A stretch of DNA of 62,990 nt, filler included, from Catajapyx aquilonaris (taxonomy: Eukaryota), in the NCBI GenBank assembly GCA_000934665.2. It is 3 parts of 3 records of this genome, joined end to end, with 100 filler letters (N's around TTAATTAATTAA, not from the genome) between each part and the next. Parts side by side here need not be neighbours in the genome. Positions count along the whole stretch, not along the records: positions 21,005 to 41,987 come from JYFJ02006167.1; 2 more parts are not named here. The stretch is one strand, 5' to 3'. Both the position numbers and the translations under genes were made by a program. Below, in pieces: positions 4,912 through 59,982 of the stretch. Position 1 is the stretch's first letter. Each line of letters begins with the position of its first letter. Under the pieces are notes generated by a model. That model was not told where the DNA came from. It worked only from the letters and a program-made list of their open reading frames with translations, and searched no databases.

Positions 4912-5241
4912 CAGGGTGTTTCAACTTTTTTGTCCGAACAGTTATCGGAAAATTGCCCGTAGCTGCTACTTTGTAAGCAGTGACTTGCAAACGATGATTT
5001 TTCTGAGGAACGGGGAATATTCCCTGCGAATCGTAGGTTGAAGTGGCATACGTGCTGCCCGCTGAAAATTGAGGGTCAAGCCTGGGAAAAAGAGGGTCAC
5101 ACATGCCATGGGATGTGTGACTCTCTTTTTCTCCATTCCCAATTACTCCGACAAATCACCGGTTGCAAGTCACTGCTTACAAAGTACCAGCTACGTGCAA
5201 TTTTCCGATAACTGTTCGGACAAAAAAGTTGAAGCACCCTG
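4912..5241. mobile_element. Tc1/mariner-type MITE, about 90-bp TIRs, TA target duplication
   Basis: TA|cagggtgtttcaacttttttgtccgaacag ... ctgttcggacaaaaaagttgaagcaccctg|TA. An uninterrupted copy of the host repeat is present at about 43337-43530. Confidence 0.88.
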
Positions 5242-5744
5242 TATATGGGAGCTTTTACATATGCACACGTGGGTTTTTGTTTAATACCGAAATTGGTTTT
5301 TGAAACAACTTCTGAGTGTATACGCACATGATTTATGTATCAAATTCCAGGGGTTTAATCTCTCTCTTTTTTGTCCAGATGGAAAGTTTGCCATCCAGGC
5401 TTTCATCTGGAGTACAAATTGTTTTGTTGGAGTGCTTAATTTTTAATTACTGGGTTTAGCTATGTTAAAAACCAGTACCAACTGGAGTGCAAACTCTGCA
5501 CTCCAGGGTTCACTTTGGAGTGCAAATGAATAATTTTGGAGTGCAAATTGCACCTTTGCATCCGAATATTTCGACCCCTGAAATTCTGAGCTGGTCGAGC
5601 CACCAACTTGTCTGTCTTGACATGGAATGACCTACCTCTGCTTTATATTATTAGGAGTCTATCATCAATCTTCGTAGAGATATGCAGAACGCTATATTAA
5701 AGGTACCGTATTAAACTGATGAAAACTTTCACAATTTTGCCATG

Positions 5745-8508: not shown

Positions 8509-8608
8509 TCATTGTTATTATGGAGCACCCTTTGTAATGAGAACATTGCTTCAAAAAGTGTAGGCATTTTGTACATGAACTTTTTAACATGTACGTTTCA
8601 GTGCCGTG

Positions 8609-12254: not shown

Positions 12255-13221
12255 CCCAACTACTGGTTTGCTTCCTTACATAATCGTACATAATACGTAC
12301 TCAGCGATACGCAGGAAAAAACGGGAAAATAATGATGTTAGAAGCAAGCCACTTTGGGAAAATGTTCCCTGCTGGACTCAAAGAAAGGTTTTTGTCCACA
12401 ACACACGAAATTCCATGGTCCCTGAGGAAGGGGAGGGGGTGTCAATAAAAATCATGGGTGTGCTAATTGAAAGTGCGTCAACTGACGGATTCTTCCGGTT
12501 TATGTGTCTTTTCGGCGTAATTCGACACCATTATGACGAATGGTGACCATGCCCCGTAATTTTCACCGTAATTTGGACCCTCTGACGCCATATTTAACAT
12601 GACCGCCCCAGCATATACGACTTATACGTGCCATTCGCATCATATTCGCGCGAGGACGAGATACAGTGATGGGCATTAATGGTGTCGTACTGTTGGCGCC
12701 ACTAGCTGATGGCGGCAAAAGAGCGATTCGAAATTTGCCATCCGTATGACCACCTTCACTTGAGCATAAATCAGGTGAAGGTGGTCATATGGAGGGCATA
12801 TTTCGATGTGTCCAGCACTGTAATGATACTGTACAGGACTAACATGGCACATGTATGGGGCGGCCATTGTTAAATCTGACGTCAGATGGTCCAAATTACG
12901 TGCATGATATGCGGGGCATGGTTATCATTCGTCATAGCGGTGTCGCATTACGCCACGTACATTACGACACATAAACCGAAAGAATCCGTCAGTTGACGCA
13001 CTTTCAATTAGCACACCCCTGATTTTAATTGACACCCCCCCCCCTCCCCTTCATCAGAGGTGGAATTTCGTGTGTTGTGGAGAAAAACCTTTCTTTGAGT
13101 TCAACAGGGAACATTTTCCCAAAGTGGCTTGCTTCTAACACCATTATTTTTCAGTTTTTTCTTGCGTATCGCTGAGTACGTATTATGTACGATTATGTAA
13201 GCAGGTAGACCCGTAGTTGGG
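12255..13221. mobile_element. Foldback-like element with long (over 350 bp) terminal inverted repeats
   Basis: cccaactac...ttacataatcgtacataatacgtactcagcgatacgca is mirrored by tgcgtatcgctgagtacgtattatgtacgattatgtaa...gtagttggg. The ORF track shows the same peptide on both strands. Confidence 0.88.
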
Positions 13222-14131: not shown

Positions 14132-14505
14132 ACTCGGGAGGGGGAGGTGTGGTGGCCGAGATGGTAACGTCTCAGCTTGCTGAGTGAAAGGTCCCAGGTT
14201 CGATCCCGGCCTGGGAGTTCCCTTTCACCTGCGTCGGGAGGGTCTCTGACCCGCACCTTGGAGGTGTCTGGCAACCTAACCTCCTGGGGGACTGCACATG
14301 GCCCAAACGTTTAAGACATTGCACCTGCACAAGTGTCCCCTCCAGGTCCCCTCCACAACAATCCCTATAGCCCTACCCTACATCCTGAAGTCCTTGCACG
14401 GTGATTGAAGAAAAAACAAGTTTGAAAACTGATGGTGGTGTGCCACCCCCCTATAACGACTTATAGTTGTGTCACGGGGTTATAAATAATAAAAATAATA
14501 AAAAC
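14132..14505 (+). mobile_element. tRNA-derived SINE, family A, full length
   Basis: A box TGGCCGAGATGG, B box GGTTCGATCCC, A-rich tail, 11-bp TSD attacttcggg (14121-14131, 14506-14516). Confidence 0.9.
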
Positions 14506-14817
14506 ATTACTTCGGGTGAAATTTGCGATAACTTAACTAAGAGAATCCAGATATTTGGAACACCCTGTATATAATGACATTGGTGGAAAAATATGTATCG
14601 GCTACATTCCAGGGCTATTAATCATTGTAATAGATACTGCCAGCTGCCGAAATATTTGGTCTTTCCTGTGAAATCCACTTGACTCTCGTAAGTTTACGTG
14701 ATGAGTCTCGATAAGACCACCGTTGTCCACCTATTAATGGGAGTTTGAAAATTTTCGGTTCAAATTTAGAGTCGAAAAAAGGGACTCAAAATTCGTAAAC
14801 TTAAAACATATTAAATA

Positions 14818-15159
14818 TTTTTTATATATACCCCGTGATAGGGCCATAGGCCCTTATAGGGGAGTGGAATACCACCATTTTTCATTCAATTTTCTATTTT
14901 TCTTCTAACTCCGGTGCAAGGATGAAAGGACATGGGGTAAGGGTAGGAATTTTTTGGGGAGGGAACATAGGTGCAAGTGCAATGTCTACAAATGGGTCAT
15001 GTGCTGTTCCCCAGGAGGTTAGGTTGCCAGACACCTCCTTGGTGCAGGTCAGAGACCCTCCTGACGCAGGTGAAGGGAAAGTTCCCCAGGCGGGGATCGA
15101 ACCTGGGGCCTTTCACTCAGCAAGCCGAGACGTTACCATCTCGGCCACCACACCTCCCC
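14818..15159 (-). mobile_element. tRNA-derived SINE, family A, inverted copy
   Basis: Reverse complement of the 14132 copy; 16-bp TSD taaaacatattaaata (14802-14817, 15160-15175). Confidence 0.9.
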
Positions 15160-20904: not shown

Positions 20905-21004
20905 NNNNNNNNNNNNNNNNNNNNNNNNNNNNNNNNNNNNNNNNNNNNTTAATTAATTAANNNNNNNNNNNNNNNNNNNNNNNNNNNNNNNNNNNNNNNN
21001 NNNN
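20905..21004. other. Artificial contig/gap spacer N44-TTAATTAATTAA-N44
   Basis: Exactly 100 nt with a six-frame stop linker; identical structure at 41988-42087. Confidence 0.95.
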
Positions 21005-21005
21005 C

Positions 21006-21137
21006 GGAAAACGAGAGAACGATCTGACTTCATCAAGGTTTCCATGGAAATACCCTCAGAGAACAATATGAGTAAACAGTGTCAACTAAAAGAAACAATG
21101 TGAGAAACTATGTAGTCAGATCGTTCTCTCGTTTTCC
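21006..21137. repeat. Short inverted-repeat (MITE-like) element
   Basis: ggaaaacgagagaacgatctgact versus agtcagatcgttctctcgttttcc. Confidence 0.7.
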
Positions 21138-22734
21138 TCTCTTTATTATGTATTGATTAAATAATGAGTTATGAATGACTACGGTGTCTAAATATTTTGT
21201 GGTGTCCTCCTTTTTTACATGTTGTCCTCCTTTTTCCCGACATTCTGTCCTCTTTTCCAACTATATGCATCTGGTCACCCTAGGTGTTGCATGACATCGC
21301 CAAAACGTCAGGAATTTTCTTTGATAATGGAGAAAACCATGGCCTCAATTTTGTGCTGAATGCTACTTGTAGGTATTCTCAAACTCTTTTATGGATACTA
21401 TTCATATAATATACTGATGATGCATATTCATAATTTTCAGCAAAAGAGAAGAACTACTATTACTATTCTGGTCAAGCATTTGCCATGGCCTTACTTCAGT
21501 CAGGTGATTGTGGAAATTTGCTATCAGATTTAGCATATGAGCTTATGGAAAGCCAAATCATCTACCCATTGAGGCTATTCCTGAGCTGCACCTTCGTGAA
21601 GCTCTCACTCAGGTAGGATAAGTACTTCCACACCGGGTGGTCGGAAAAGAAGACCCAATATCTTGTTTCAAGTTTCAAAAAGTCCCACATTTTCTCTATT
21701 CCTCAGCCTCCTTAAACTTAAGTACCAATCCTATCCAAGAGAATGCAGTATGTATTCTTCGTTTCCGGTCATCATATCAAACTGGGCGTCAGTGTGATTT
21801 AGTGAGTGACTAGGCCTGGTGGTTTTTTGGCATCCAGTTGCGCCCATGGTCCTCTACCTCTACTAGGGTGGGGTTCAGTGGGTTTACCATGCATATTTTC
21901 TGATAGAATAGGTTCTGAGGAGCATTTTAGGTGTTACAATTATCTTGTACCAATCCAGTTTGCGTTTGTCTGCATCGATTGTTGGAAGCATTAAGTTCAT
22001 CACCCTGGGTGCAAAACTTGCCGACTATCTGGTTATCTGCAGCAGAATCCTGCATTTGAAGGTACACCATTCTAGTTATATTACTTTATGTCATAACCAG
22101 TGTTAAAATTACTGTAGATGGATAGTAAGCCGTCCCGAGGACATGTGCGATCACAAATTCAATAAAAGGGACGGCTGTTCGGTAGGCACTTTTTGACGTA
22201 CTTACTGTATGTTGGATTAATGTAGGATCAATTGTATCCAGCCATTTCAAACTGGTGCAGCCAGTAATTAAAATGGGAAATCATATATTGTTTGGATTTC
22301 ATTGTATCATTTATTGTCGGTGCCATTTTTCAGGTATTTCAATAGGCTGCCTGGCGAACAAGATGGTTTTCCAGGATTTGTCCCTTCCTCCAAAACCAAA
22401 CACCTTGGGACATTTTAAATAGGTCAGGTCAAATTTTTAGTCTGGAAATGTCTTCTGGATATTTACGTGTTAGAATGCTGCAGTACATGCATATTTTATG
22501 GGATACTATCGTAGGCTCGAGTCAAACTGTGTTTACCACATTGCTCTAGTTGCATTTTATAACCACTCAACAAGCCATACTGAAACCTCCAGCGACAGGA
22601 TGGGCAGCGGACGCCTCGGTCCGGACGACGGAGGAGGAGAAACTGTTCCATCAACTGGCCCAGGTGTTGCCCATCCTTCAGGACCCGGACGAGGATGAAG
22701 AGATCAATCAGGGATATTATAAACTGAAGAATTC

Positions 22735-23292
22735 AGTTTCTCCCTTAATCTGGATGAAGAAGTTGTAAAATTTGAGATGGCAAACAAATTTAGTGTAAAT
22801 GTTAATGATTATAAGGACAGTTTGATCGTAGACCCAATTCGTACCACCAGACCACATGTGGATCTCCTCTTACTGAACCAAGGGGAGACACTATGTTGCC
22901 ATAACTAAGTTAAGTGCCTTACTTTGGTGTGGTGTTGGGAAGGGGATATCTAAGCAATATTTCTGTAAATTCTGCACCGGCAGATTTACACAGGAGGAAC
23001 GGTTGCATGCGCATGAGGCAGTGTGCACCATTCCAGGAGGGAAGGGCCAACCTGACGAGATGCCGGAAGGGGAGAATAGTCATCTGCGTTTTAGGAATAT
23101 TAAGAAAACGTTGAGCTGACCTTACGTAGTATACGCTGATTTCGAGTGTATTATGGAGGAGGAGGACACTCTAAAACATATCCCGTGGCTTTGCATATGT
23201 GATAATTGGTCCTGACAGAACCGTTGTAAAATTCAACACGTATCGAGGGGTCGACTGTATTGTCCGTTTCCTCACCAATCTGGAAGATGTGA
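22735..23292 (+). pseudogene. Polinton/Maverick (adintovirus-type) protein-primed DNA polymerase B N-terminal/exonuclease fragment
   Basis: Manual translation across two frameshifts and one stop: VKFEMANKFSVNV...HVDLLLL...HYVAITKLSALL...YFCKFCTGRF..EERLHAHEAVC...MPEG...LRFRNIKKTLS*PYVVYADFECI...GFAYVII...YRGVDCIVRFLTNL. Confidence 0.8.
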
Positions 23293-23439
23293 TGATACCC
23301 GGAAGATTCAGAGTGTGAAGAAGAATTGGTTCAGTTTAGCAAACTTGCAAAAACAGACCTGGTTAGCATAATATCTGATGATAAACATGAGTTTTATGAT
23401 TTAAAATGATAACGTCTGCTAGTTGACAACAATGGCTTT

Positions 23440-23620
23440 GGTTCCTGCTTCCCAAATGTAACGATTCCTCTTAAGATCTACCTCACCCTAATGTTCACCA
23501 ACAGCAGTGGTCAACGCTCGTTTTCTAAATTAAAAAGATAAAAAAACGAAGCCAGATCCAGCATGGGGCAGGCACACCTGAACCATCCTTACCTGATGAG
23601 CACAGAGCACGAGATAGAAG
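23440..23620 (+). mobile_element. hAT transposase C-terminal dimerisation domain fragment
   Basis: FPNVTIPLKIYLTLMFTNSSGQRSFSKLKR...RSSMGQAHLN..LMSTEHEI. Confidence 0.75.
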
Positions 23621-23689
23621 ACAAATACTCGCCCAGCTGCAAGATTAATGATGTCATATTTGATAAATTGATGAATGTGCGTTCGTATG

Positions 23690-24370
23690 CTACATCAGAA
23701 AAGATAGAAACCTGGAATTGTGATGCTATTCCTATAGAATGTCGCTGGGTAGAAATTTTTCAGCATTTCAGTGCCCAAAACATCCCAGCACCAAATTTGT
23801 CCAAGGTCCTTCAATTTGTTTCGTGCCTCCCAGGCAGTTCGGCAAACAGAGCCATCATCAGCGGAGCTGGTCTTCGGAGGGGGGGCAGGAGGAGATGGGA
23901 GAGGAGAGGCTGAAGATGGACAGGATGGGGGACGAGAGAAGAAGATGCCGATGCCTTCCCCTTACTATTTTGTGGGAGGGGTAAGACTCCACAACTTTTC
24001 TATTGACGTGGACCCAATCATCCATTGTCCCAAATGCCTGAAGGTGTTTGGGACAATAGACCCAATTTCCTAGTAATCCTTGCACCGAAGATCGAAGAAA
24101 AAATCCATTAGAAAACTGAATGGTGGTAGAAGACCCCCCTATAATGACCAAGAGGTTGTAGCACAGGGTATTAAAATAAATACCGTGCCTCCCAGGAACG
24201 AATGCATCAACAGAAAGAGTATTTTCTTGTATGAATAATTTGTGGACCCCAAGCAAAACTCAGTTGAAAGTAGAAACCGTAAAGGGAATGCTAATTACAA
24301 AGATGAATTTTTATGAGAATTGTCTGGATTTTCACAAAATTCCATTGAATGACAGGAGTCTCCCGGAGAA
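23690..24370 (+). mobile_element. Second hAT C-terminal fragment, split by a retroposed insertion
   Basis: RWVEIFQHF...PNLSKVLQFVSCLPG [insert] TNASTERVFSCMNNLWTPSKTQLKVETVKGML. Confidence 0.75.
23835..24183 (+). mobile_element. Retroposed insertion (LINE/SINE 3' end)
   Basis: 13-bp TSD cgtgcctcccagg (23822-23834, 24184-24196); A-rich end; tail resembles the SINE family A tail. Confidence 0.8.
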
Positions 24371-24864
24371 GACTTCGTACCCCCCTTTCTCCGCCCCCTC
24401 CTGACGCCAAATTCCACCTCTCTAGGTAGGTCGGGAAGTGGCTCAATTTAGGTGGTGAACATAGTCACACCGCACTGTTACATATGTAGATTAAATTAAA
24501 AGCAAATTAATACCATGAAATAACAGGTCAGTTGTGACATGAGCAATTTAACACGTACCCCTTGGCAGAGGCCCGCGTACCACAGTTTGGGAACCGCTGC
24601 AATAAGCTATACGTGATGCACCAAAAATAACACGTTAACTCCATTCACCTTACTCCCTCGGCAGGCTATAGTGTGCGCAGCGCAAAAGATCATCTCTTGC
24701 GATAGGACCACCGCCCAGCGGCACCTACAGCTGGAAGAGGACCTCATGGTTGGATCCACTCCCTCATGGCCCATGAGCTTGGTGCAGGACTTTAGGAATC
24801 GAATGTACCGGGCATAATAATACGTACAATAGCCTATTAGGCTTGTGTGTTATCATCGTCTTAG

Positions 24865-25976
24865 GGTCGGGTGCACCAGTCGCGGTAGAAATGCGGCGTA
24901 CAAGATTTACCGATAACGGAGGGATCTCCGTAAAAATGATTTACCGACGGTGAATCCCCTGTGGGCGGTGCTCCAGTAAATTTTTTACGCCCCGTTCATC
25001 TCATACGGGGTAAACCATGGTGGCTATGAGAATCGAGGCGACCCAAGGTTTTTCCGGCGCTGCGATTGGTCAGTCTAGCTCTTGGGGGCGATCAGTCGTG
25101 GGTGGGGGTGGCAAGGCAATATGGCTGCGCCGATGAGAACGTTATTCCGCTCCTACTCATTGTGAGTTGTGACCCTAGCCATGGTGGGCACAGCAGCAGG
25201 GACCCGCGGGCGAAAGCAGGAGCAAGTGCTCATAGTAGACCTTGTTCTCCGGTACAAAGATGTTCTGGAGAACAAGGCTACAGATGCCACCAGTAATAAG
25301 GTGAAGGAGGAAGGGTGGCTCAAGTTGGAGGCCGATTTCAATGCGGCCTCCGAAATCAAGAAGACTGCGGCACAGCTGCGGGCTGCCTTCGACAACATGA
25401 AGAAGGCAGCGAGGAAGACTGCCGCAACTGCTAAAGTTGCAGTTTACAAGACTGGTGGGGGCAGTGCTGCCCCACAACCAGATGAGATAACGCTGAAAGT
25501 GCTGGGCATCATAGGCAAGTCAGCTGTGCCCTATGATGTCCAGCATGATGATGATGGCACTGGAGAGAGGGACGGTAGGTTCTGAGTGCTGGCAGGGATA
25601 GCAGTAGTGGAGTACAACATGAGCTCCATGAAGCAGTTGCTCCAAGCATCATATCAAAAAAGGAAAACCCTGCAGTTGGGAGTGCCTGCCAGCATACCTT
25701 TTAGATGAAAGAGTGGTATGTTTTTATTTTGTACTACAGTACTTCATATTAAGAAACACTACAATATAGTATCGAGTGTCTAAATGTGCCAATATTATTT
25801 TCTGCTTCAGCTGATGTTGGAAGCAGAACTACGGTTCAACCAGAGTTTTTCGTCCATGGAAAACACTTTAAATTCTGTCTTGGAAACTGAAACAGAGGCT
25901 TCCGAAGATAGAAACATACCTTGACCTGACCAATCACCTCACTTCCAACAGGGCTGCAATGCCCTTTGTTACTCAG
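24865..25976 (+). mobile_element. PIF/Harbinger-type element 5' part with Myb/SANT-like DNA-binding ORF (25169-25585) and decayed downstream exons
   Basis: EQVLIVDLVLRYKDVLENKATD...KEEGWLKLEADFN...TAAQLRAAFDNMKKAARK...YKTGGG is a Myb/SANT-like (MSANTD-type) signature. TTA|gggtcgggtgcacca resembles a Harbinger terminus. Confidence 0.72.
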
Positions 25977-26289
25977 GTAGGTGTGGTGATAACTTGTTTA
26001 TTAACTCACGCTTAACTGCATTTATCTTGCTAAAGGACAACTGGAATGTAAGATGGCTCTGGTGGGTTCTCATTTGAGTAGAAAGTTCGAGAGTGTGCGA
26101 GGGTGTTTTCATAAGCTCTTGTTTGGGCTTATAAATTACTACTCAATAAGGGAAACAAGTTGCAATACCCTGCACACCCATTCAAAAATAATAGCTATTG
26201 TCACAGGGCCCTTGGCAGTTCCAAAGCATCGTCATATATGTTGCAGATGTGACTTACGGGCATTACAACCCCGAAGGCACAGAATGCAA

Positions 26290-26525
26290 CGGACTGGGGC
26301 ATTTTTAAAGCACTTTTCCTAAAGCGATTCAGTCCCAGCCGCCGCGCCGCTTTGCAGATTTAATTGGCAATGTAAAGGGGATCAAAGCAGAAGAGCAAAG
26401 TGTCAACGAGTTTGCTACCGCATTAAGGAGGATGCAGGTGGACCTCCAAGCATGTGCCGATGCGCCGGGAGATAAGGCAACAGTAGAATTGGTAATTTTG
26501 TCGCAATTTCTTTCCGGCGTCATCG
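26290..26525 (+). mobile_element. Ty3/Gypsy-like gag capsid fragment
   Basis: Manual translation EEQSVNEFATALRRMQ...VELVILSQFLSGV resembles the gag Q..E.V.EF...LR...QF..G motif. Confidence 0.5.
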
Positions 26526-26670
26526 CTCCAAATTTTGAAGCCTGTACATTCGTCGGAAAGTGGTTCGCAAGCTAGAAAGGGTTGTCTTGGACTGGAATGC
26601 GAAGCAAATGAGAAGACTGAGGTAACAGGAAATAAGTATAGTTTCATATACCAAGTATAGTTCAGTATAC

Positions 26671-27264
26671 ATGGTGTTCCAACGTTCGGTAGCTGCTGCA
26701 CAACGTTCGGTAGCTGCTGCACAACGTTCGGTAGCTGCTGCACAACGTTCGGTAGCGGATGCACAACGTGCTATAGCTACGAACCAACGTGCTATAGCTG
26801 CGAACCAACGAGCTCTAGCAGCGAACCAACGTGCTATAGCTGCGAACCAACGAGCTATTGCTGCGAACCAACGCGCTATAGCTGCGAACCAACGCGCTAT
26901 AGCTGCGAACCAACGGGCTGTAGCTGCGAACCAACGAGCTATTGCTGCGAACCAACGAGCTATAGCTGCGAACCAACGGGCTGTAGCAGCAAACGAACGG
27001 GCTAGAGCAGCGAACGAACGGGCTAGAGCAGCAAACGAACGGGCTAGAGCAGCGAACCAACGGGCTATAGCTGCGAACCAACGAGCTATTGCTGCGAACC
27101 AACGGGCTGTAGCAGTGAACGAACGGGTTATAGCAGCGAACCAACGTGCTATAGCAGGTGCTGATGACCAACGGGCTGTGGAAGCTAACATCCTGGCTAT
27201 GGAAGCAGACCTCCGTGCTGTTGAAGCCGACAAACTGGCTGCAGCAGCTCAGCTGAGTCACTAG
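26671..27264 (+). CDS. Ala-rich heptad-repeat (QRAIAAN)n predicted coiled-coil ORF, 197 aa; possibly a decayed terminal exon
   Basis: 22 tandem 21-bp units (26680-27141) with variation mostly at third codon positions, followed by degenerate units, a stop and several AATAAA motifs. Confidence 0.5.
   Translation: MVFQRSVAAAQRSVAAAQRSVAAAQRSVADAQRAIATNQRAIAANQRALAANQRAIAANQRAIAANQRAIAANQRAIAANQRAVAANQRAIAANQRAIAANQRAVAANERARAANERARAANERARAANQRAIAANQRAIAANQRAVAVNERVIAANQRAIAGADDQRAVEANILAMEADLRAVEADKLAAAAQLSH
26680..27141. repeat. 21-bp minisatellite, 22 units
   Basis: Consensus about caacg(t/a/c/g)gctatagctgcgaac. Confidence 0.95.
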
Positions 27265-27344
27265 ATCATGTTAATAAGAAAAATAAAGAGTAATTAATAA
27301 AAAATGAATAAAGAGTAATTAATAAGAAAAACAAACTGAAGTTT

Positions 27345-27460
27345 ATTGTTCGATCCCCACCAGGGGTTCCCACCTTCTTTCGTGCAGAGTTGGGCCATCC
27401 CTGGCTTCGTTTCGGGTGGCAATTTCCGCTAGACAAAGCCACCCGGGGGAGTTTCACACG
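27345..27460 (+). mobile_element. tRNA-derived SINE family B fragment
   Basis: gttcgatccc B box plus body shared with the copies at 35890-36150 and 44428-44740. Confidence 0.7.
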
Positions 27461-27534
27461 GGGAGTTAAGCTGGGTGTTAGTTGCTGAAGAGGAAGATAC
27501 CGACGTAGGACAGTTAAGCGAAAATGTCGCTATA

Positions 27535-28080
27535 GGCGCATTCACACGAGCGACCTTTGGCCAGGAAGTTTCCTGGCCAAAGGTCGCCAGAACCGCTCAC
27601 ACGCAAGTGGCCAGGTTCGGCCAGGTTTAAAAGGTGGCCAGGCTGGCGACCTTCCTACAGCTCGCCAGGATCGTGTCCAAGGGTAACGCAGGCGCAGCGC
27701 AGGCCTCCCTTCAAGAAAAAGATGGCGGCGGCCAAGGCTCGACCCTGGGATAGGGATGAGAACCTGGCCCTCCTGGACATCTGGGGGCAGCCCAGGTGCC
27801 AGGAGGAACTTAAAAACGCCACGAGAAACAAAGTGGTGTATGGTCATATTGCCAGTGACAGTACGGCAGTGCGATGCAGGGAAAAAATTAGGAAGTTACT
27901 CCGGCAATACCATGCCGTAAAAAAAGGCGAGGAATAACTCGGGAGCTGGCTGGACCGAGTGGGAGCACTTTGACAGGATTGACGAGGTGCTCGGTGGGAG
28001 ACATTCAGAGAGGCCCCCTTTTTTGCTGGAGTCGACCCCTGCTGCTCTCACAAGCCAAACAGATCCAATCGCCCAACGTA
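27535..28080 (+). mobile_element. Harbinger-type element 5' part with frameshifted trihelix Myb/SANT-like ORF (ATG 27722)
   Basis: PWDRDENLALLDIWGQ...RNKVVYGHIA...CREKIRKLLRQY, then WEHFDRIDEVLG in another frame. Terminus-like ggcgcattcacacg followed by a palindrome with 18-bp arms (27550-27587). Confidence 0.72.
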
Positions 28081-28454
28081 AGGTACCTGCCTAACCCATG
28101 GGAGGGTAACCAAGGAAATAAAATATGCTGTAAACGTTTCGCTCATTACAAATGATGTTATCAGCTCGGACGAGGAATCCGCAGAGCCTCAAGTGGACAC
28201 ATCAGTTTTGGAAGGTATGCTCGGGTCTTGTGGTAGCTAAGCTGGGTTACTAAACCCAGCACAAGTGGTCATGCCCCACCTTCACTGCAATTTTGGAATA
28301 GAGAGGCCAGAGCACCCAGTCAATGTACAAGTGAAACTTGTTGAGCATCTCCCATCCTGCTTCTCTCCGTCATCTTTTTCTCCGCCAAATTTTTCTTCCC
28401 CTTTCTTCTCTCTGCCCGTTCCCTGCCCGTGACCTGTCCCACCCGCTCTTCAAC

Positions 28455-28610
28455 ATGTCTCGCAACAGAGGGCCGGAATACGAAGCCGAATGCGAACGGT
28501 TGATTACGATCGTGAAGGACGCCCCAGCAATATGGAGCCCAGAGCACAAGGACCACAAAGACAAGACGTACATCGCCGCCCTTTGGGCACAGATAGCCAT
28601 GTTTGCACAC
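28455..28610 (+). mobile_element. MADF-domain fragment (transposon accessory type)
   Basis: ERLITIVKDAPAIWSPEHKDHKDK....ALWAQIA matches the MADF LI..V...P.LW......Y......W..IA pattern; truncated by the hAT fragment that follows. Confidence 0.65.
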
Positions 28611-28639
28611 GCGGCAAACCGAGGCGATGCGACAAATAT

Positions 28640-29700
28640 GCGAGCAGGTCGAGGACACAACTCGACCAAGTATGATCGTGAATTGGAAAGGAAGTGGATG
28701 TTTGGTCCAAATAAATGTCGTGGTTGTAAGGAATATGTTCAGCACGACATTGCCACATGTCTGACAAACGTCTGAGAAACGACTGGGACACGTGGGTGCC
28801 AACTTATAGAGCCTGGGCCAGAGACGAGTATTTGGTTCCGGCCACAGGGAATGTATACTGCTTCCCATGCGTGCTATTTACTGAAACATCTACAGGCCGA
28901 ACTCAATTATCTGTGGAGGGATTTTCACACTGGAAGAATGCCTCGATGCGAATTAAAACGCACGAAGACAGTGCAACGCATCGGGCATGTGTGCAGACAA
29001 TGATCTGTAGACGTCGTACACATGGTCGTGTCGACACCGCTTTAGAAATTGAGTTCAAAAGCGAACAAGACTACTGAATGAAAGTTCTGCAAAGAGTAGT
29101 GGCAGTGATCAAATTCCTCTCATCACGTGGATTAGCTTTTCGCGGTGATACAGAACTCCTTGCTTCTCAACATAATGGCAACTACTTGGGAATCGCGTAG
29201 TACGACCCTTTTCTAAGTCCTCATTTGGCCAAATATGGTAATCAAGGTCGAGGAAAGCCCTCCTATTTATCTTCCACAATTTGCGAGGAAGTAATCGAGA
29301 TAATGGGAAATGAAGTTTTACAAATCATTGTAAAGGAAATTCAGGAAGCAAAGTACTTTTCTCTGAGCGCTGATTCGACACCAGACATATCTCATATTGA
29401 CCAATTGACTATAGTGCTTAGATATGTTGGAGTATCAGATGGTGAAGTAGTAGAACGTTTTCTCACATTCATCCCCATGGCAAGCCACATTGGAAAGCGC
29501 TTGCCACCACTGTTTTGACCTTTTTAGACAAATGCGGCATTGACATTAAAAACCTGAGAGGACAATCTTATGATAATAATGCAGTCAGGGTGTTACAATG
29601 GTCTTCAAGCGCACATTGCCAAGATAAATCATCTTGCATACTACATTCCGTGCGCAGCACATTCACTCAATTTGGTTGGAGTACGTGGTGTAGAAAGCAA
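28640..29700 (+). pseudogene. hAT transposase (ZMYM1/DUF4371-like) pseudogene fragment
   Basis: VYCFPCVLF...GFSHWKN...HEDSATH...FLSSRGLAFRG...NGNYLG...YLSSTICEE...KYFSLSADSTPDISHIDQLTIVLRYV...LRGQSYDN...CAAHSLNL, with stops and frameshifts. Confidence 0.88.
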
Positions 29701-30668
29701 TCTCATTCTTCGGGCTTGTGCAAGAAATCAACCCACCGTTGGGCGATTTTATAACTCGAAAACTCCTGCCACTCTCAGGGTAATATTAGTGGGTGGTACT
29801 ACGCATTGGGCTCCCAACCTGACACACAAGGGGGATGGTGCAGGACAGGTCGATGTAGGCTGTAATGTGTCTACAAAATTTCGAGTTAATTCTAAGGTTC
29901 TCCCCCGATCACCCTGTATACATTGCATTGCATTATTGTTTTTTCCATTGCTAGTTCTAATCCTGGTCGGTTTAGCTGGCATATGCACGGGGACATTTTG
30001 TATGCTAATTTCAATATCTGGTCTGTGGGTGCTAATACGAAGGGTATGTTAAAATAAAACACCGTCATTGAGGTGCTGTGAACTCGAATGGCGACGCTTT
30101 TACTTTGCAGCCACCTACAGGACTTATTGGTCACAGAGTCAAAGTGATGTGGCTTGCAAGTCAAGGCGGTTGGTTGACCTTGATTGCCATCTACACTGCT
30201 GCCCTAATTTTTCTCGATCCGTCATCTCTGCAAACTGCAGGGGGTCTTGCCTTAGTTCTTGGACTGGTATATTCGTTAATTATGTGGATATGGGTGGCAA
30301 ATCTGATGAATCATCATTTGTATCAGGTGCGTGCAATGTTGCATGTAGGTCAAAATACAGGGTGATTCTCTCCTCTCCGTCCAACCAACTGCAGCTCGAC
30401 TTCATGTCTCTCAGGAGAAGGATAAGACGGGGGGAAACTGCAAAATCGTCAAGCAGAATAGGTTTTTTTTCTGTCCAGAAAAAGAGGGAAAGCAAAAAAA
30501 AAAAAAATGTAAGAAAGCGGAAGGTAAGGAGGAAATGGAGTTCGAAGAAATACTGTTAGGGAAACCCGTTCTTGTGATAAATTCAGCTCAAAATAACTTG
30601 GATCACACATACTGATGGCGAAAGTTATTTTGGGCTGAATTTACTAATAAATTCAGCCAGAAAATTAT

Positions 30669-30900
30669 GCAGGACACTTTCATTATGCAAAGTGCGCCCA
30701 TCTGTATGTCCAGGAGATGCAAGAACTCCAGGAAAAAATTCCCCCAGAAGAATATCACAAGTTTACTGTTCAGGGATACTTCAGCATCAGGAGGAGTGAC
30801 AAGTTCTGGAGTGGAATGTGAAGCGATATGATTATAGAGCAGCAACTAATGCGGGCCATGAAGACTTCAGGTGGACTAACTAGAGGTCGTGGTATAACAC
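30669..30900 (+). mobile_element. Academ-type transposase fragment
   Basis: AGHFHYAKCAHLYVQEM...GYFSIRRSDKFWSGM*SDMIIEQQLMRAMKTSGGLTRGRGIT. Confidence 0.65.
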
Positions 30901-31018
30901 AACTTGGATCCCACGAAACCAGCAGAGGCCTGGAGGTTTTGAGCTGGTCGGTGCGATGGGACCTGGAGCTGGCCAATGACCCTGGACAGGGCCCTGATGG
31001 CCCAGGATGGACTGACGA

Positions 31019-31092
31019 CTGGTGGTCTGAGCTTATGGTGGACTGATGTCTGGTGGTCTGAGCTTATGGTGGACTGATGTCTGGTGGTCTGG
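31019..31092. repeat. 31-bp tandem repeat (about 2.4 copies)
   Basis: ctggtggtctgagcttatggtggactgatgt repeated. Confidence 0.85.
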
Positions 31093-31203
31093 ATGCTTGG
31101 TGGCAGCCAAGTTGATGTTTTTATTTTGTATTAATTATGTTAATGTTGAATGAATTGGCTGTTGGGCCTTATGGGCATGGTCGGTCAAATAAATTCCGAA
31201 TAA

Positions 31204-32100
31204 GTGGGAGAGGACACCGATCTGTTGGTCCTGCTCACTTTTCATGTTGCTGTCTTTGAAGAGCCCATCTCCAACATGTTCCTCATCAAACCCGGGAAGC
31301 AGAACCAGGAAACTGGCGTTTACAGTCCGAGCAATTGCCGGCTGCCTGAAGACATGAGGAAGCATGCCCTGTTTCTCCATGCCTTCACGGGGTGCGACAC
31401 TACATCCGTATTTTTCCGCCAGGGGAAAATGAAATTGTTCATGATATCCATGGCAGACCAAAACCTCCTTCATCAGGCCGCAATTTTTCTTGACCCGATT
31501 GCAACTCCTGATCAAGTTGCAGAGGCAGGCGTTCACTTCATAAAAACCTTGTACACGGGAGTCAGCAGCAAGTCCCTCAATCAAGTGAGGTTTGACATCT
31601 TCCAGAGGTCGCTTTCATAAAAGAATTTCAACTTGGCGTGCTTGCCTCCTACAGGAGTGGCTGCTCGCCAGCACTCCTTCAGAGCTTATTTACATGTGCA
31701 GGTATGGAGGAGTAATGTTCCAGAGAGATGGGGATGGAAAATAACCACCAATGGGTTAACTCCCATCACAACGACTGATCCACCGGCCCCACAAGAACTT
31801 CTCAACTCCATATCGTGCACATGTAAAAAAGGGTGCAAAGCAGCTTGCTCCTGTAGGAAGGCAGGAATAAAATGCACCACCATCTGCATAACCTGCAATG
31901 GGCACGCATACCTCAATTCCTTCTCTGAAGACAAGGATGTTATACTGGATGCATCCCAGTGTGGCGGTGAGATTGATATCATCGAAGGAGAGCAAGAAAT
32001 GAATCCTCATTCTCAAGATTCCGAGGATGAGGACCTAGATGACGTGATCGGCGAAGAGCGACCGTATTCTCCTAAACGGCGAAAGATATCGTCAACATGA
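31204..32100 (+). pseudogene. Academ (AcademX-type) C-terminal XPG-like nuclease plus Cys-rich zinc finger fragment, one internal stop
   Basis: GEDTDLLVLL...FLHAFTGCDTTS...GK...LPPT..AARQHSFRAY..VQVW...WGW...CTCKKGC..ACSCRKAGIKCT.IC..C. ORFs 31204..31620 and 31633..32100 are in the same frame. Confidence 0.75.
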
Positions 32101-32261
32101 GTACCTTGTACATCTTTCATATTATGATCTGTCATGTACACAAGTTATACTGTTATCGTTTACATGTATACATATTTTGTTACCTTCAATTAAACAGTAT
32201 TCAATGAAACAGGGTGGTAGTGGGTGGTGTAATTACACGGAAGACTCAATCCTCTTCGCAA

Positions 32262-32470
32262 TTTGCGCCTGAAAGGTCACGCTAAGGAGGAGGTTCGCAC
32301 CTACAACCAACAATGTAAGAAGACGGGCGGTGGGCCTCCACCACCAGAATAGTCGGAGGAGACAGCCAAGCTGGTGGACACTCTGCCCAAAGGAGAGTTT
32401 GTTGTGCCAGTCAATTTTTACGACTCCAACTATGATATAAATGAAGTTCGTGTCAGTCCACACACCAACT
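32262..32470 (+). mobile_element. Third Myb/SANT-like accessory protein fragment (C-terminal part)
   Basis: LKGHAKEEVRTYNQQCKKTGGGPPPPE*...FYDS, with the same KTGGG signature as the 25169 ORF. Confidence 0.55.
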
Positions 32471-34544
32471 GTGTAAGTAGCTATAGCCTGCCCCACACAA
32501 GGCTTACTTACAAGAAATGTCAATAACATGGCATTGCATGACATGGCAATAGCCATGATGACATGACCAGTATTTTGATGCGGGTAAAGGAAATGCAAGA
32601 CAAGTCAGAGACCCAGACTTTTACAACAGATAATTAATTAATTAATTAATTTTTAAAAAAACTAGGTGAAGGTCGTGGTGGAAGAGATGCAGCATGTCAG
32701 TCCTGGAACCACCGGAAGACATTCGGTCCAACATAAAAACTATGTGGTGCCAGTTGTCTGATGGGCTCTGGCAATTGATTGGACACCATCTCTTCTCCTC
32801 ATGCGTCGCATGCACTTGTCCAGTCCAGTCCATAGATAGCATGGTGTGATTGGATCCTTACCCTCAGTCTAACCAGCAAGTATGTGTAGCGAGCTTTATC
32901 ATTTGCATTCCTTTACTTGACCCAACCATCGCTAAACTTGGACTGCACAACAGGACCCAACAGTGCACAATGAAACCAGCATTCTACCAAAGACTGCCCC
33001 TTCTTGCAGGTACAAGTTCTTCTTGAATGAAGGTCATCCCAGAGATCTCCTTCCCCCCTCCTGCCCTAGCTGTTGTCCCCGCCAGTACCCCGCAAGGATC
33101 TCTTGATGGTTAGGGGATTGATGCCCTTCCCAACCCTTTGCCCCTGAAGACCCCCAGGATGACCCCACGAAGTATTTCTGCTAAAACTCCTCTCTTAATT
33201 ATTTGTTAAAATGTGGCTGCAATCACTGAAGCTGTTGGCTGGCTTCTTCAGCAAACTGTGAACGCTTGGGCACTTGCCATAATGTCCTAATTCTTGAACA
33301 GGAACCACTGCTTTCAGGTGTTACTGAAGTGCAGTATGCAGAGGGCACCGAAGTCAATAAATAGCTGGCAACCCTGTGCTGGAGGGTTGAAATTCCCCAT
33401 TCATGGTGAATTCACGTTGACCATCTCACATCCCATAATGCAGCAATGTCTTCAAGAGGTTATGAACTTCCAGGGTGGTTGCTGTTCCACAAAGCAGGTG
33501 AATGACTTCAGAGAAGATAGAGCCAAACGCAGCAGCTCTGATGAAAGTGGCAGCGTAGCAGGCAGCTTCATGTTCCTTCACACCACCAGGGCCTTTCATC
33601 TTCTACAAGCCCACGGGTTGATCGCAATGGATCTGCAGGTTTCTCAGGTACAGAATGGCATCCTTACTAGCTTCAAACAAACCTGGAAAAGAGATTCAGC
33701 AATTAATACACAGTGACAACAGGCATCACCTAACCAACATTTGCCAAGGCGTTACATGGACAGTTAATTTACATGCTAGGCATACTGAACTACACTTCTA
33801 TGGCATAATAATTCAGTTTTTCATTGCCAATGACACAAGTGGCTTATTTTGGCACTTGCCAAATGGCAATGTCCACACAACTGACCAACCAAGTCGAGTA
33901 AAAAATTCACTGTAACTTTGCTTGACAACCTCATCCAAGACTTTGCAACAGATGTACAAACTACAGTCGGTGGAAGTTATTCATCTGGTATTTTCTTGCA
34001 TAAGTTTATTGGGAGAAATGGCTGGTAATACCCATATTTAAATGTGATTTCACAAAATGAGATATATTTCTTCAATCATTAGCACTGTCATGGAAAATAA
34101 ATATGACCTGCATGTTATCATTTTGGAAAAAGATTTAGCTCCACAAATGTACACCAGCAGATTATTTGAAAGCGCTCCGATCCTAAAAGAATTTTGTGGC
34201 AAATATTTTCTGGAACTATAGGCCTATTTCCTTAATGTAATCCAACATTGTAATATACAAAAAATGCATGATAAAATGTAATATACAACAAATGCGTATG
34301 ACATGAAAATGTCACGTTCAACAAATACATATGACCATTAGGTCTTAGTATGACATGAAAATGTGACATCCAAAAAATGGGTCTGACATATTGTGACATA
34401 CAAAAATGAGTTCGACATAAAAATGTCACATTTGAGGTACACCCTGCCGGGAAATGTCATTCTGCCACCATGAAAACATGACGCATATGCTGGAGTAAAT
34501 GCAGCGGTTTTTCTGCCTTTCCCCCCGTTGCATTGGTATGTTGG

Positions 34545-34783
34545 ACCTAACCAAGATCTGAACCGCCCCGAACCTCCGTCCGGAACCGGGTTCAATTCTG
34601 GAGGGGTTGGTCCGAACCAAAAGCCGGACCAAGCTGGCAAGCTCCCAACCAAACTCCGCACCAGCTCCAACCTTGGCTCCACTCTCCCCCTGAACCGGCT
34701 CGAACCCGAACCAAGCTCCTACGCTCGCTCCGGACCCAGCTCTACTGCTCCGAAGCAAGGGTTCGGTTAGGGTCACAACCCTG
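34545..34783. mobile_element. Partial copy of the hAT MITE at 39894-40217
   Basis: Shared gaaccg/ggttc repeats and terminus cacaaccctg. Confidence 0.7.
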
Positions 34784-35889
34784 GATTCATTGGAAGAATT
34801 AATGAAAAAAACTCAATAAATGTCGCCCCATGGGGAATGGCGAACTACCCTTCATTTTGAAAACTACATAATAAATTCGCCCATATTTTTTGGATTTTTT
34901 TGGCATATTCAGTTTTAATAAATCAGTTTCAGTTCCGGAGTAATTAGGGTTTTTTCTAAGGGAAATGGTGACATCACTGTTTCCCTCGAAAATGTTGACG
35001 TCCCACGAAGTGAAATGTTATACCAGTGAATCTTAAAAAATTATTTTGCTTGGTTGCATTATCATGCAATTCATAATAATTCAATTAATTATTATGAATT
35101 ATTATTATATTATTATTATCATGCAACCAACACGGCCGCACGAGACAACGGGTTAATTGAGGCAATCAATAAAATATTAATTTTTTTTTTACATAAGAGA
35201 CTTGCATTTCTCATCAATGTGTTCTTTATCCCTTCATCTCCGGTGGAAGTTTGAGCTACTTTTGAACATTTCTTTCAATCACCCTTTGCATGGTGTAACA
35301 CAAGATCCAGTACCGTGAATTTTAGTTCTTCAGGTCTTACTGCACCACACAAGGACACTTGCAGTCACAAGTTCACCCCCCAAAAAAATCATCAGATAAT
35401 CAAATGATGATCGTAGAGCCTAAATGAGACGAGTTACTGGCGTGGTGTAAGTATAAACTAAAAACAGTTCCACTGCACATAAATGATCGGTGCACCCTAC
35501 ATGTCAGCTCATATCATGATAATTTTTTAGGGTTTTCCTTAATATGTTAAATGACAATTTGTCAGATATTGCCTAATTACATTCCCCATTCAGACATCAA
35601 GATTCGAGAATCACAACTTTCCAGTTTTCCCTACGGCAAATAGGCACACTATAATTTTGATAGTTTTTATTGCATTTTAAATAGAAATCCTAGCAAACTG
35701 CTGCCTTCACTGGAGCTGAGATTAACTTAATTCATGTGAATGCATTGCTGGTTTCCAATTGTACTGCACAATTTAATGAGTTGCCATACTCTGTAATTGA
35801 CATTGCACAATAATTTATTTCCTGAAATGTTTCTTTTCCCTGGGTACTTTGAATAGATTTTTAAAACACGACTATATTCAAATTGCCAA

Positions 35890-36150
35890 GGGAGGCGAAG
35901 TAGTGCTGCAGTAACGCATGCAACCACAGATGTCCAGGTCCCGGGATCAAATCCTGCCCGGGGACATCCCCTTCATCTCGTGCAGAGTTTAAGGCCATCT
36001 CTGACTTCGTCTCGGGTGGTATTTCCAATAGACTAAACCACCCGGGGGAGTTCACAAAATAACATAAGCAACTGTCCTGCACTGCACCTTGCATCCAGGC
36101 GTTATGGTAAAAGGGCCATCTTATACTAGCTGTAATACAAAAGCAAATAA
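35890..36150 (+). mobile_element. tRNA-derived SINE family B
   Basis: Degenerate B box gggatcaaatcc; body catctcgtgcagagtt...cgggtgg...ccacccggggg matches the 44428 copy. Confidence 0.75.
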
Positions 36151-39893: not shown

Positions 39894-40217
39894 CAGGCTT
39901 GTGAACCGAACCGAACCCTTGCTCCGTGAATCCGATAACACCGGAGCCACTCCAGAGCAGTAGAGCCTGGTTCGGAGCGAGCGTCGGAGTTTGGTTAGGG
40001 GTCGAGCCGGTTCAGGGGGAGAGTGGAGCCAAGGTCGGAGCTCCTCCGGAGTTTGGTTTGGGCCAGCACCTACGAAGTTGAACCCGGTTCCACTCTCCCC
40101 CTGAACCAGCTCGAACCCAAGCCAAACTCCGACACTCACTCCGAACCCAGCTCTACTGCTCCGGAGTGACTCCGATGTTATCAGGTTCACAGAGTGAGGG
40201 TTCGGTTCACAACCCTG
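39894..40217. mobile_element. hAT-type MITE
   Basis: caggcttgtgaaccgaacc ... ggttcggttcacaaccctg; 8-bp TSD ttccttgg/ctccttgg. Confidence 0.85.
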
Positions 40218-41987: not shown

Positions 41988-42087
41988 NNNNNNNNNNNNN
42001 NNNNNNNNNNNNNNNNNNNNNNNNNNNNNNNTTAATTAATTAANNNNNNNNNNNNNNNNNNNNNNNNNNNNNNNNNNNNNNNNNNNN
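41988..42087. other. Artificial contig/gap spacer N44-TTAATTAATTAA-N44
   Basis: Same structure as 20905-21004. Confidence 0.95.
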
Positions 42088-43986: not shown

Positions 43987-44979
43987 CTAGTAGGTTACCC
44001 GGTGTTGCCTGGGTATGTTGGGGTGCTGGTAAAGGTTAGGGGTACATATACAGTATATTAGGAAGTGTGTTTGTTTGTAAAAATTTCCCTTCCATACACT
44101 CGAAACTCGATATGTCTTAAAATAGGCCTTATAAGTTACAATCACACCCCCACCTCGTTCCATATGTTTGCTCTCAAGAACTTTAGATTTTGTGCGTACA
44201 GATGCATGGTGGAAAATTTTGTGTTCAACACGGAGTAATATTTGTAAATACTGTATTATTTTATTGTAATTACTTTTGTCTGGAAGTCTACTTTAAAATC
44301 TCACAAAATCCCGGAAATACCATAAGATACGAACTCACATGAGGTGGCCAATTAGCGTAATTGGAGGATGCGTTGAATTAACGGCAATGGTTTAATTTGC
44401 TAGGTATTGTTACATAAGGGCATTTCGTAGGGGCGACAAAGTGGGGCTGCAGAAATGCGCCCACTGATGTGCAGGTCCCGGGTTCGATCCCAGCCCGGGG
44501 TTTCCCCCTTCATCTCGTGCAGAGTTGGATCGTCTCTGCTGGCTTCGTTTCGGGTGGAATCTCCTCAGACTAACCCACCCGGGGAAGTTCACAAAATGTA
44601 CCCGTTGAGAATTGCACTTGCACCTTAGTCACCCTGCCCATGGGCCCGGGCGCTACGTCAAAAAGGTTCCATCAAGACAAAATAAAGGTTCCCTCCCTGG
44701 GGTACGATGCAGAGAGGTAAATAGCCATATTTTTAAAAAGGCATTTCCATGGGAATGCAAATTGATATATTGTTATTGATGTAGGAAGTGAGAAGATTTG
44801 GGAATATGCGTGTTGTGGCAGTTAGGTTCATTTTCGGAAGCTGAAACATGCGGCGTTAGATTCCTTGGAAAAAGTAACCCCTGATATGGTAATTTAAGCC
44901 GGTGTAGGGGCCTTCCCCTGGATTTCTATAAGGGACAAACAAACTCACAAACAAACTTCCTTATTTGTAGATATAGAGA
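43987..44979 (-). mobile_element. Non-autonomous Helitron/Helentron-like element with nested SINE
   Basis: Minus strand begins A|TC followed by (GTTT)n-like repeats and ends with hairpin acccaggcaacaccgggt plus CTAG|T. Subterminal inverted repeat aggaagt..gtttgtttgt. Confidence 0.7.
44428..44740 (+). mobile_element. tRNA-derived SINE family B
   Basis: B box GGTTCGATCCC, shared body, imperfect TSD ggcatttc. Confidence 0.8.
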
Positions 44980-46203: not shown

Positions 46204-46491
46204 TGTGAGCTTAGCTGATCTCCCCCACCAAGGGGGGTTTGCCACGGGTGGCGCTAGGATCACGCACCAAGATAGGTGGCACCACCACTAGTGGAAAATT
46301 CTGAACAATTTTGGTCGACTCCGATTGGCTGGAGTAGTTAAGGCCTCCTACACTACCCCGGCCAATCGGAGTCGACCAAAATGGTTCAGAATTTCCCACT
46401 AGTGGTGGTGATGCCACCTATCTTGGTGTATGATCCTATAGCGCCACCCGTGGAAAACCCCCCCTGGTGGGGGAGATCAACCAAGCTCACA
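46204..46491. mobile_element. Hairpin (palindromic) MITE, about 135-bp arms
   Basis: tgtgagctt..tgatctcccccacca...ttttggtcgactccgattggc is mirrored by gccaatcggagtcgaccaaaa...tggtgggggagatca..aagctcaca. Confidence 0.88.

Positions 46492-47022: not shown

Positions 47023-59982
<12,960 letters not shown>

Follow-up and report, generated by a model that had tools for sequence, protein, structure and literature searches.

When fragments of many unrelated transposon families lie side by side at one place in a genome and all of them read on the same strand, has the place been kept for the sake of this arrangement, was it brought there by a single mobile element, or is it simply a spot at which transposons have arrived and decayed? 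This question is raised by a block of about 10 kb (22.7-32.5 kb) in a stretch of 62,990 nucleotides from Catajapyx aquilonaris (assembly GCA_000934665.2), here called the window, which joins three parts of this genome end to end; positions count along the whole window. A first-pass annotation, made from the sequence alone, had described the block as a collage of co-oriented transposon and virus fragments, and had proposed it as a candidate uni-strand cluster for PIWI-interacting RNAs (piRNAs) of the flamenco type.

The block contains no intact gene and does not move as a unit. The reading that we favour, to which we give about an even chance, is that it is an inert, single-copy, non-mobile and decayed graveyard of transposons in intergenic DNA. 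In the following sections, we describe the strand and identity of the pieces, their copy number and their junctions, and then weigh the processes that might have brought them together.

Transposon-Gene Remnants on One Strand

Stop-to-stop open reading frames (ORFs) in and near the block were compared with Pfam in two sets, comprising 137 ORFs of at least 45 amino acids that overlap 22000-33000 (72 on the plus strand and 65 on the minus strand) and 132 short ORFs of 26-44 amino acids in 22600-32700 (61 plus and 71 minus). Among these 269 ORFs from both strands, transposon-type matches were found on the plus strand only; the minus-strand matches were weak and unrelated, namely a repeat-driven YqfQ match inside a minisatellite and a DUF4771 match with an E value of 0.0022 over 29 residues. 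A tblastn search of the whole window with 73 proteins gave 84 high-scoring segment pairs, 84 on the plus strand and none on the minus strand; these pairs fall within just two of the units. Among 521 ORFs of at least 45 amino acids outside the block there was one weak transposon-type match (Integrase_H2C2, 1285-1644, plus strand, E 0.006, below the cut-off), the rest being host domains. The block is the sole place in the 63-kb window with remnants of transposon genes, and all of them read on the plus strand. The pieces are as follows, with the names used below.

22856-23185, plus strand: PolB-like piece, decayed N-terminal fragment of a Polinton-PolB-like ORF, with a C2H2-type finger and, after it, a 'VVYADFEC' motif (23126-23149)
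23413-23640, plus strand: hAT-A, C-terminal (dimerisation) fragment; Dimer_Tnp_hAT match at 23413-23538 (E 1e-3; 19.3 bits, cut-off 21.4)
23690-23870, plus strand: hAT-B, probable C-terminal fragment, weak, with a 'CLPGSSA' motif
24180-24401, plus strand: hAT-C, C-terminal (dimerisation) fragment; Dimer_Tnp_hAT match over the same interval (E 8.1e-4, 19.6 bits, about 2 bits below the cut-off)
25181-25574, plus strand: Myb5 (Myb5-A), 5'-complete first exon of a Myb_DNA-bind_5 gene, with its own ATG and then a GTAGGT donor; Pfam match at 25166-25582 (E 4.9e-15, 55.7 bits, above the cut-off)
26309-26572, plus strand: 'gag-like' ORF, identity unproven
27722-28240, plus strand: Myb4, 5' part of a Myb_DNA-bind_4 gene, with an ATG of its own, a single frame change and two apparent donors; Pfam match at 27536-27934 (E 5.4e-8, above the cut-off)
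28455-28629, plus strand: MADF, 5' part of a gene with a MADF domain, of which positions 1-37 of the 84 in the profile are present before the neighbouring fragment cuts it short; MADF_DNA_bdg match at 28335-28772 (E 3.5e-5; 24.5 bits, cut-off 22)
28630-29750, plus strand: hAT-N, 5' part of a DUF4371-type hAT transposase gene; match to DUF4371, a hAT-associated domain, at 29201-29515 (E 1.1e-4, below the cut-off)
30111-30326, plus strand: exon-like open segment of 72 codons
30669-32134, plus strand: 3' part of one Academ-like DNA transposon gene, with its stop codon at 32098-32100 and one in-frame stop at 31618-31620
32233-32470, plus strand: Myb5-B, probable 3' fragment of a second Myb_DNA-bind_5-type gene, weak (similarity over 32233-32349)

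The units that have a profile match or strong homology (hAT-A, hAT-C, Myb5, Myb4, MADF, hAT-N and the Academ-like element) are 7/7 on the plus strand, for which the two-sided binomial p is 0.016. If the PolB-like piece, hAT-B, the gag-like ORF and Myb5-B are added, the count becomes 11/11 and p falls to 0.001; both values are nominal and uncorrected for a genome-wide scan. Co-orientation is nominally beyond chance, but it is not compelling, because this locus was chosen among very many scanned windows and some of the units may not have arrived independently. The first-pass annotation had counted at least 12 co-oriented coding pieces; the shared strand is borne out, with no credible unit on the minus strand, and the count comes down to about seven supported pieces, or up to 11. 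It had also placed remnants resembling long interspersed nuclear elements (LINEs) on the minus strand just outside the block, for which the Pfam scans of ORFs gave neither a reverse transcriptase (RT) nor an endonuclease domain.

Identity and Decay of the Pieces

The PolB-like piece at the left edge is interrupted by an in-frame stop (23117-23119) and by a frame change near 22880. Related-looking ORF text may begin farther to the left, at about 22723. A phmmer search of 1.84 billion representatives gave 11 matches, two of which extend over the whole query (P0065, E 1.9e-5, and P0069, E 1.7e-4), and tblastn placed residues 269-365 of P0065 on 22886-23185 (E 2e-13) and P0069 on 22856-23158 (E 1e-9). 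These two are truncated proteins with the same zinc-finger layout and the same 'YADFE'-type (ExoI-like) motif as the piece in the block. In other words, the piece called "Polinton PolB" in the first-pass annotation has real homologues, but its identity as PolB is unproven: Pfam detected no PolB domain in P0065, in P0069 or in the window, and a word-based homologue search with the ORF also gave no match. The name is used here as a presumption.

To the right of it stand three C-terminal hAT pieces, which had likewise been counted as three. The dimerisation matches of hAT-A and hAT-C support two of them, each at about 2 bits below the Pfam cut-off, and hAT-B is the weak one, tied to hAT-C by a pairwise BLASTP match with an E value of 0.014. 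An exact 13-mer, CGTGCCTCCCAGG, occurs at 23822-23834 and again at 24184-24196, 362 bp apart, within the same conserved hAT motif of hAT-B and hAT-C (0.00 such pairs are expected by chance), and it may be the footprint of recombination or of a template switch. We also considered whether the three pieces are diverged tandem duplicates of one another, and rejected this view; apart from the 13-mer, the DNA of hAT-B and that of hAT-C cannot be aligned. The hAT-N piece begins with an ATG at 28757, carries frame changes and is truncated at about 29730-29750. By eye it contains a zinc finger, which we take to be of the TTF type.

Two of the three Myb/SANT pieces of the first-pass annotation, and its MADF piece, hold good with Pfam matches above the cut-off. 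The third, Myb5-B, is weak: its BLASTP match to the ORF at 25166-25582 has an E value of 7e-4 over a 'KTGGG' region, and the ORF that follows it showed no similarity in our searches. Since the 'KTGGG' region is present in both, Myb5-B as a continuation of Myb5-A, that is, as the other end of one split element, was rejected. A candidate second exon of Myb5 lies at 25812-25977. As for the ORF at 26309-26572, formerly called Gypsy-like gag, it has atlas leads only, at 0.83-0.85, to clusters of Retrotrans_gag and DUF1759; a word-based homologue search gave no sequence match.

The exon-like segment at 30111-30326 is flanked by 'ttactttgcag', which looks like an acceptor, and by 'gtgcgt', which looks like a donor, and it encodes two hydrophobic helices. 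It has a weak Pfam match to the CD47 transmembrane region (E 0.005), and a sequence search of the PDB gave no relative. A run of 14 adenines follows at 30494-30507. The first-pass annotation had taken this run for a retroposed tail, but it is not the end of a processed copy, because the single-copy sequence upstream of it carries apparent splice sites. For the same reason 29751-30507 was rejected as a processed retrocopy, and no flanking duplication was seen around it.

Some of the pieces are 5'-complete, with start codons of their own (Myb5 at 25181, Myb4 at 27722, MADF at 28455 and hAT-N at 28757), in some cases followed by donor-like sites. Others are pure 3' ends, namely the three hAT C-termini, the Academ-like part and Myb5-B. 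Because intron-like sequence is retained, the pieces are genomic copies and not processed mRNAs.

An Academ-Like Element

The largest remnant occupies the right part of the block. Its ORF at 31204-31617 matches P0003 with an E value of 9.9e-70 (85% identity over the 138-amino-acid query). By tblastn, residues ~779-853 of a relative of 1471 amino acids fall on 30669-30926 and residues ~1188-1422 on 31204-31902, and the protein is present to residue ~1471. The two pieces had previously been listed as two Academ units. They are parts of one element, truncated at its 5' end and internally deleted, because 19 full-length or long relatives align colinearly with both (30669-30926 and 31204-32094); a further 42 queries align with the C-terminal piece only. 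About 778 upstream residues are absent, and in place of about 334 internal residues there are some 300 bp, with a 31-bp tandem repeat among them (31008-31100). In the part that is left, one codon out of 298 is a stop, and its identity to an intact relative is 83%.

Full-length relatives have 1456-1492 amino acids and come from many animals. Pfam gave nothing for nine of ten such relatives and one weak match, to DUF6589, for the tenth. Six relatives from insects and a rotifer (P0015, P0017, P0023, P0036, P0052 and P0055; ~1426-1492 amino acids) share this lack of a Pfam domain and have a CXC cysteine cluster after a C-terminal half that resembles FEN/XPG. An AlphaFold (AF2) model of P0003 was built from an alignment of 40 sequences, with a mean predicted local distance difference test score (pLDDT) of 74.9, exceeding 90 over residues ~210-490. 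At E 1e-3 or better, 45 PDB chains resembled this model; among the matches listed, all are FEN1, XPG/Rad2, EXO1, XRN or another 5'-nuclease of that fold. The modelling supports the view that the C-terminal half of this family has a FEN/XPG-type nuclease fold.

Academ elements encode an XPG-type nuclease, a feature that defines them. The likeness of the present family to Academ lies in a large protein with a predicted C-terminal nuclease of the XPG/FEN type and then, in the relatives, a cysteine-rich CXC motif; the difference is that only the 3' third is found here, the part with the transposase domain being absent from the window. The superfamily was described by Kapitonov and Jurka in 2010, as cited in PMC5751038; according to PMC5751038, Pfam has no model for the Academ transposase (DDE/RNase H-like) domain.

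Copy Number and Junctions

Of the words sampled from the block, 77-85% occur in three DNA runs from one sample, whose 31-mers and contigs were compared with 21100-36000; the baseline depth there is about 30-40. Contigs at baseline depth, with 0-4 mismatches, extend over 21911-22955 (from the left flank into the block), 22961-24414 (the PolB-like piece, hAT-A, hAT-B and hAT-C), 25567-26709, 27744-28629 (joining Myb4 to MADF), 29726-30481 (including the exon-like segment) and 32105-32808 (from the block into the right flank). Both edges of the block and several of its internal junctions are thereby covered by single-copy contigs. The first-pass annotation had asked whether the junctions are single-copy, and at these places, in this one genome, they are; the same order of fragments at many loci, which would have pointed to a composite mobile element, was not found.

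The depth of the individual pieces is unequal. The PolB-like piece, hAT-A, hAT-B, the gag-like ORF, MADF and the exon-like region are at or near the baseline, hAT-N is at two to three times, Myb4 at about four times, Myb5 and hAT-C at about five times and the Academ-like piece at about ten times the baseline, and a short interspersed nuclear element (SINE) in the block reaches about 1000 times. Because raised depth is confined to individual pieces, the pieces come from families of low copy number, but their arrangement is single-copy.

How Was the Block Assembled?

If the block is a graveyard, unrelated DNA-transposon genes would have landed, or been copied, in one tolerant intergenic spot at different times. 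Among the arrivals there would have been one Academ-like element, a Polinton-PolB-like piece, at least three copies of hAT, and genes of the Myb/SANT and MADF types such as transposons carry or give rise to. Each piece would then have been truncated by later insertions and deletions, and the SINE, a foldback repeat resembling a miniature inverted-repeat transposable element (MITE) and a minisatellite would have been added. The shared orientation would most economically be a matter of historical contingency, possibly helped by the joint arrival of some pieces. We favour this course of events because decay and family copy number are unequal between the pieces, which have lost one end or both and are interrupted by stops or frame changes; unequal depth fits different ages and family histories. 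Like the nested or degenerate transposon clusters known from animal intergenic DNA, the block packs together many truncated, decayed and unrelated families in a single-copy arrangement, with no intact gene and no overall termini. It is unlike them in being fully co-oriented, in showing no visible nesting of split elements, and in the dominance of DNA-transposon and accessory genes over retroelements. A degenerate patch of many families is a known kind of thing; the complete co-orientation is mildly unusual. Three observations weigh against a graveyard. A chance placing of 7/7 units, or 11/11 with the weak ones, on one strand is nominally improbable (p 0.016 to 0.001); the nested pattern that would be expected at least sometimes, an element split around another with target-site duplications, is seen in none of the pieces; and the mixture of cleanly 5'-complete pieces with pure 3' ends hints at a process more orderly than random decay.

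These same observations are what other processes would have to explain. The block may have been made in one or a few steps by template switching, either in the course of the repair synthesis that follows a break or the excision of a transposon, which would leave ectopic filler DNA, or by an RT that jumped between sense transposon transcripts, in which case co-orientation would come from copying and not from selection. Short pieces that abut without recognisable termini, target duplications or nested splits are consistent with such a history (no dedicated search for hAT termini or 8-bp duplications was made), as are the exact 13-mer at the same hAT motif of two otherwise unalignable neighbours and the fact that all coding pieces are sense relative to each other. 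However, apparent introns and donors are kept, for example after 25574, after 28084 and around 30111-30326, and because of them the templates cannot have been spliced mRNAs. Decay is also very uneven, the PolB-like and hAT pieces being far more broken than the Academ-like part, which fits different times of arrival better. We consider template switching improbable on balance. A giant composite element (for example a Polinton/Maverick, a Helitron or some other large transposon with fragments nested in it), of which the block would be the remnant or the cargo, is the least probable explanation of all, and we regard it as very improbable. The Polinton-PolB-like piece at the left edge of the block speaks for such an element, and gene-capturing elements, for example the Helitrons of maize, do carry co-oriented fragments. 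On the other side, no inverted or direct repeats bracket 22.7-32.5 kb; no Helitron-type hairpin with a CTRR end occurs on either strand of 21000-34500; the 269 ORFs contain neither the Polinton core genes (integrase, packaging ATPase, protease and capsid) nor a Helitron Rep/helicase; and, at 31-mer resolution in this genome, the order of fragments does not recur, the junction contigs being single-copy. On these three lines of evidence (junctions, termini and core genes), the composite element, which the first-pass annotation had offered as its alternative, was rejected as far as the contigs of one genome show. The block resembles Helitrons and Pack-MULEs in its co-oriented short fragments of unrelated genes with introns kept, and differs from them in lacking Helitron or MULE termini, in being single-copy, and in that its pieces come from transposon genes and not from host genes.

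The remaining explanation is that the orientation was selected. The block would then be a small uni-strand piRNA source, in which a minus-strand precursor, starting beyond the right edge (>32.5 kb), would run through the block and give piRNAs antisense to hAT, Academ-like, Polinton-like and Myb/SANT/MADF transcripts, plus-strand insertions having been kept for the useful guides that they provide. The structural premise of this proposal is real, as the first-pass annotation had it: many truncated families, one orientation and single-copy junctions. All 7-11 transposon-derived units are on the plus strand and none on the minus strand; many families are met within 10 kb, at the sole such place in 63 kb; the single-copy junctions would make a precursor uniquely mappable; and relatives of at least 90% identity exist elsewhere as possible targets for the Academ-like element (~10 times the baseline), Myb5, Myb4 and hAT-C (~4-5 times). 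Strand bias of transposon fragments is described in PMC10643416 as a hallmark for finding unistrand clusters, and the block shares with flamenco and the flam-like clusters of Drosophila the collage of transposon fragments, the strong strand bias and the position outside genes. According to the same source, however, flam-like clusters are 227-1085 kb long and are defined by antisense enrichment of Gypsy and other elements with long terminal repeats (LTRs). The block, at about 10 kb, is 20-100 times smaller; no RT, integrase or env domain was found by Pfam among its 269 ORFs, no LTR was recognised and its gag is doubtful, so that the flamenco-type comparison fails on size and LTR content, the points at which it can be tested. 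About half of the block (the PolB-like piece, hAT-A, hAT-B, the gag-like ORF, MADF and the exon-like region) is at or near single-copy depth even at 90% likeness, many of these fragments being without close genomic relatives, and antisense small RNAs from this half would for that reason find few close targets, if any. For a locus chosen from a genome-wide scan, the orientation statistic is modest, and the prior is low, because all piRNA clusters of a genome account for only about 0.2-3% of it (PMC7259680). We therefore hold a piRNA source to be unlikely. Its more specific form, a compact source of about 10 kb, downstream of CMIP, with a minus-strand transcript that starts a little beyond its right edge, and aimed at DNA transposons, at their Myb/SANT/MADF accessory genes and at a virus-like Polinton polymerase, not at retroelements, a "flamenco in miniature" for cut-and-paste elements, is likewise an unlikely proposal. 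To something other than the explanations set out here we assign a small probability.

Two further observations touch on transcription. The signal AATAAA occurs 75 times on the plus strand and 31 times on the minus strand of the whole window, against first-order Markov expectations of 42 and 35, and ten and four times, respectively, in the block. Because the asymmetry is window-wide and is an excess on the plus strand, not a depletion on the minus strand, it does not discriminate minus-strand transcription. A further run, X5, from 2022 and of unrecorded library type, contains 8% of the words sampled, and gave exact contigs of low depth at 25741-25903, 29440-29676, 30218-30448, 30788-31075, 32579-32933 and 33097-33687. 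It covers nearly all of 32579-33687 and leaves some high-copy bins uncovered, for example 34022-34518 (~78 times the baseline), and in this it looks unlike random shotgun DNA. If the run consists of RNA reads, they would point to transcription at the block's right edge; because its library type is unrecorded, it is no evidence on expression.

Repeats within the Block

Three features of the block are repeats and not gene remnants.

26626-27261, no strand assigned: 21-bp minisatellite; Tandem Repeats Finder array at 26764-27155
27346-27455, plus strand: tRNA-derived SINE, 5'-truncated copy
30519-30660, no strand assigned: small foldback (MITE-like) repeat, with an inverted repeat of 22-nt arms at 30578-30599 and 30622-30643

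The minisatellite had been read as a gene with heptad repeats (the "heptad ORF"). With a period of 21, 18.7 copies, 88% matches and frames open on both strands, it is not a gene. The contigs of the DNA runs break off near 26706 or 26748 and resume at 27223 after 31 other letters, the length of the minisatellite being collapsed or variable in short reads. The SINE, by contrast, was correctly recognised in the first-pass annotation, and its bin has a depth of about 34,000 against a baseline of about 35 (~1000 times). Aligned copies in the window lie at 27346-27455, 35918-36040 and 44455-44600, all on the plus strand and at about 400-1000 times the baseline depth, and only the copy in the block is called 5'-truncated. 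At the foldback repeat, contigs join opposite strands at 30552/30656 with a depth of about 530-740 (~15-20 times the baseline).

Setting of the Block in the Window

The block is intergenic and lies about 15 kb, in window coordinates, past the 3' end of the CMIP gene on the minus strand. Host genes of the window are the following.

8588-9052 and 9369-10124, plus strand: MATH-BTB (SPOP-like) gene by Pfam, as two adjoining long ORFs (MATH and BTB, respectively)
47367-47999, minus strand: LRR C-terminal exon of CMIP (C-Maf-inducing protein), by Pfam
59791-60012, minus strand: PH-domain exon of CMIP, by Pfam

Since the LRR C-terminal and PH exons are only about 12 kb apart, CMIP is compact here. 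An 82-nt direct repeat, at 10005 and 10179, directly follows the BTB ORF. The parts of the window are joined at 20905-21004 and 41988-42087 by runs of N (44 N, 12 bases and 44 N), about 1.7 kb to the left and 9.5 kb to the right of the block.

The G+C content is about 40-45% in the window overall, and 0.43-0.50 in the block against about 0.39-0.41 in its flanks. CpG observed/expected ratios of the pieces lie between 0.38 and 1.13 and show no pattern by which the block could be told from its flanks. Elsewhere in the window there are MITE-like inverted-repeat structures (4591-7059, 12255-13221, 14141-15159, 39908-40208, 46204-46491 and 49831-50494), in agreement with the earlier remark that the repeats outside the block are non-coding, and a tandem duplication of 850 bp at 5741-7017. 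Scans of the whole window with Rfam, at the gathering threshold, and for tRNA genes gave no matches.

Implications

For the family of Academ-like proteins, a side result of this work is that a widespread animal family of about 1470 amino acids, without Pfam domains, gains a FEN/XPG-type nuclease fold that is supported by structure prediction. For C. aquilonaris, the meaning of the block depends on which explanation is right. If it is a true small-RNA source, it would be a case of strand-selected capture of DNA-transposon and Polinton fragments, which is much less documented than clusters directed against retroelements, and scans for co-oriented collages that use the sequence only would be able to find such loci. 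If it is inert, as we favour, it is one more degenerate patch, and a record of the DNA-transposon families (hAT, Academ-like and Polinton-like) that have visited this genome.

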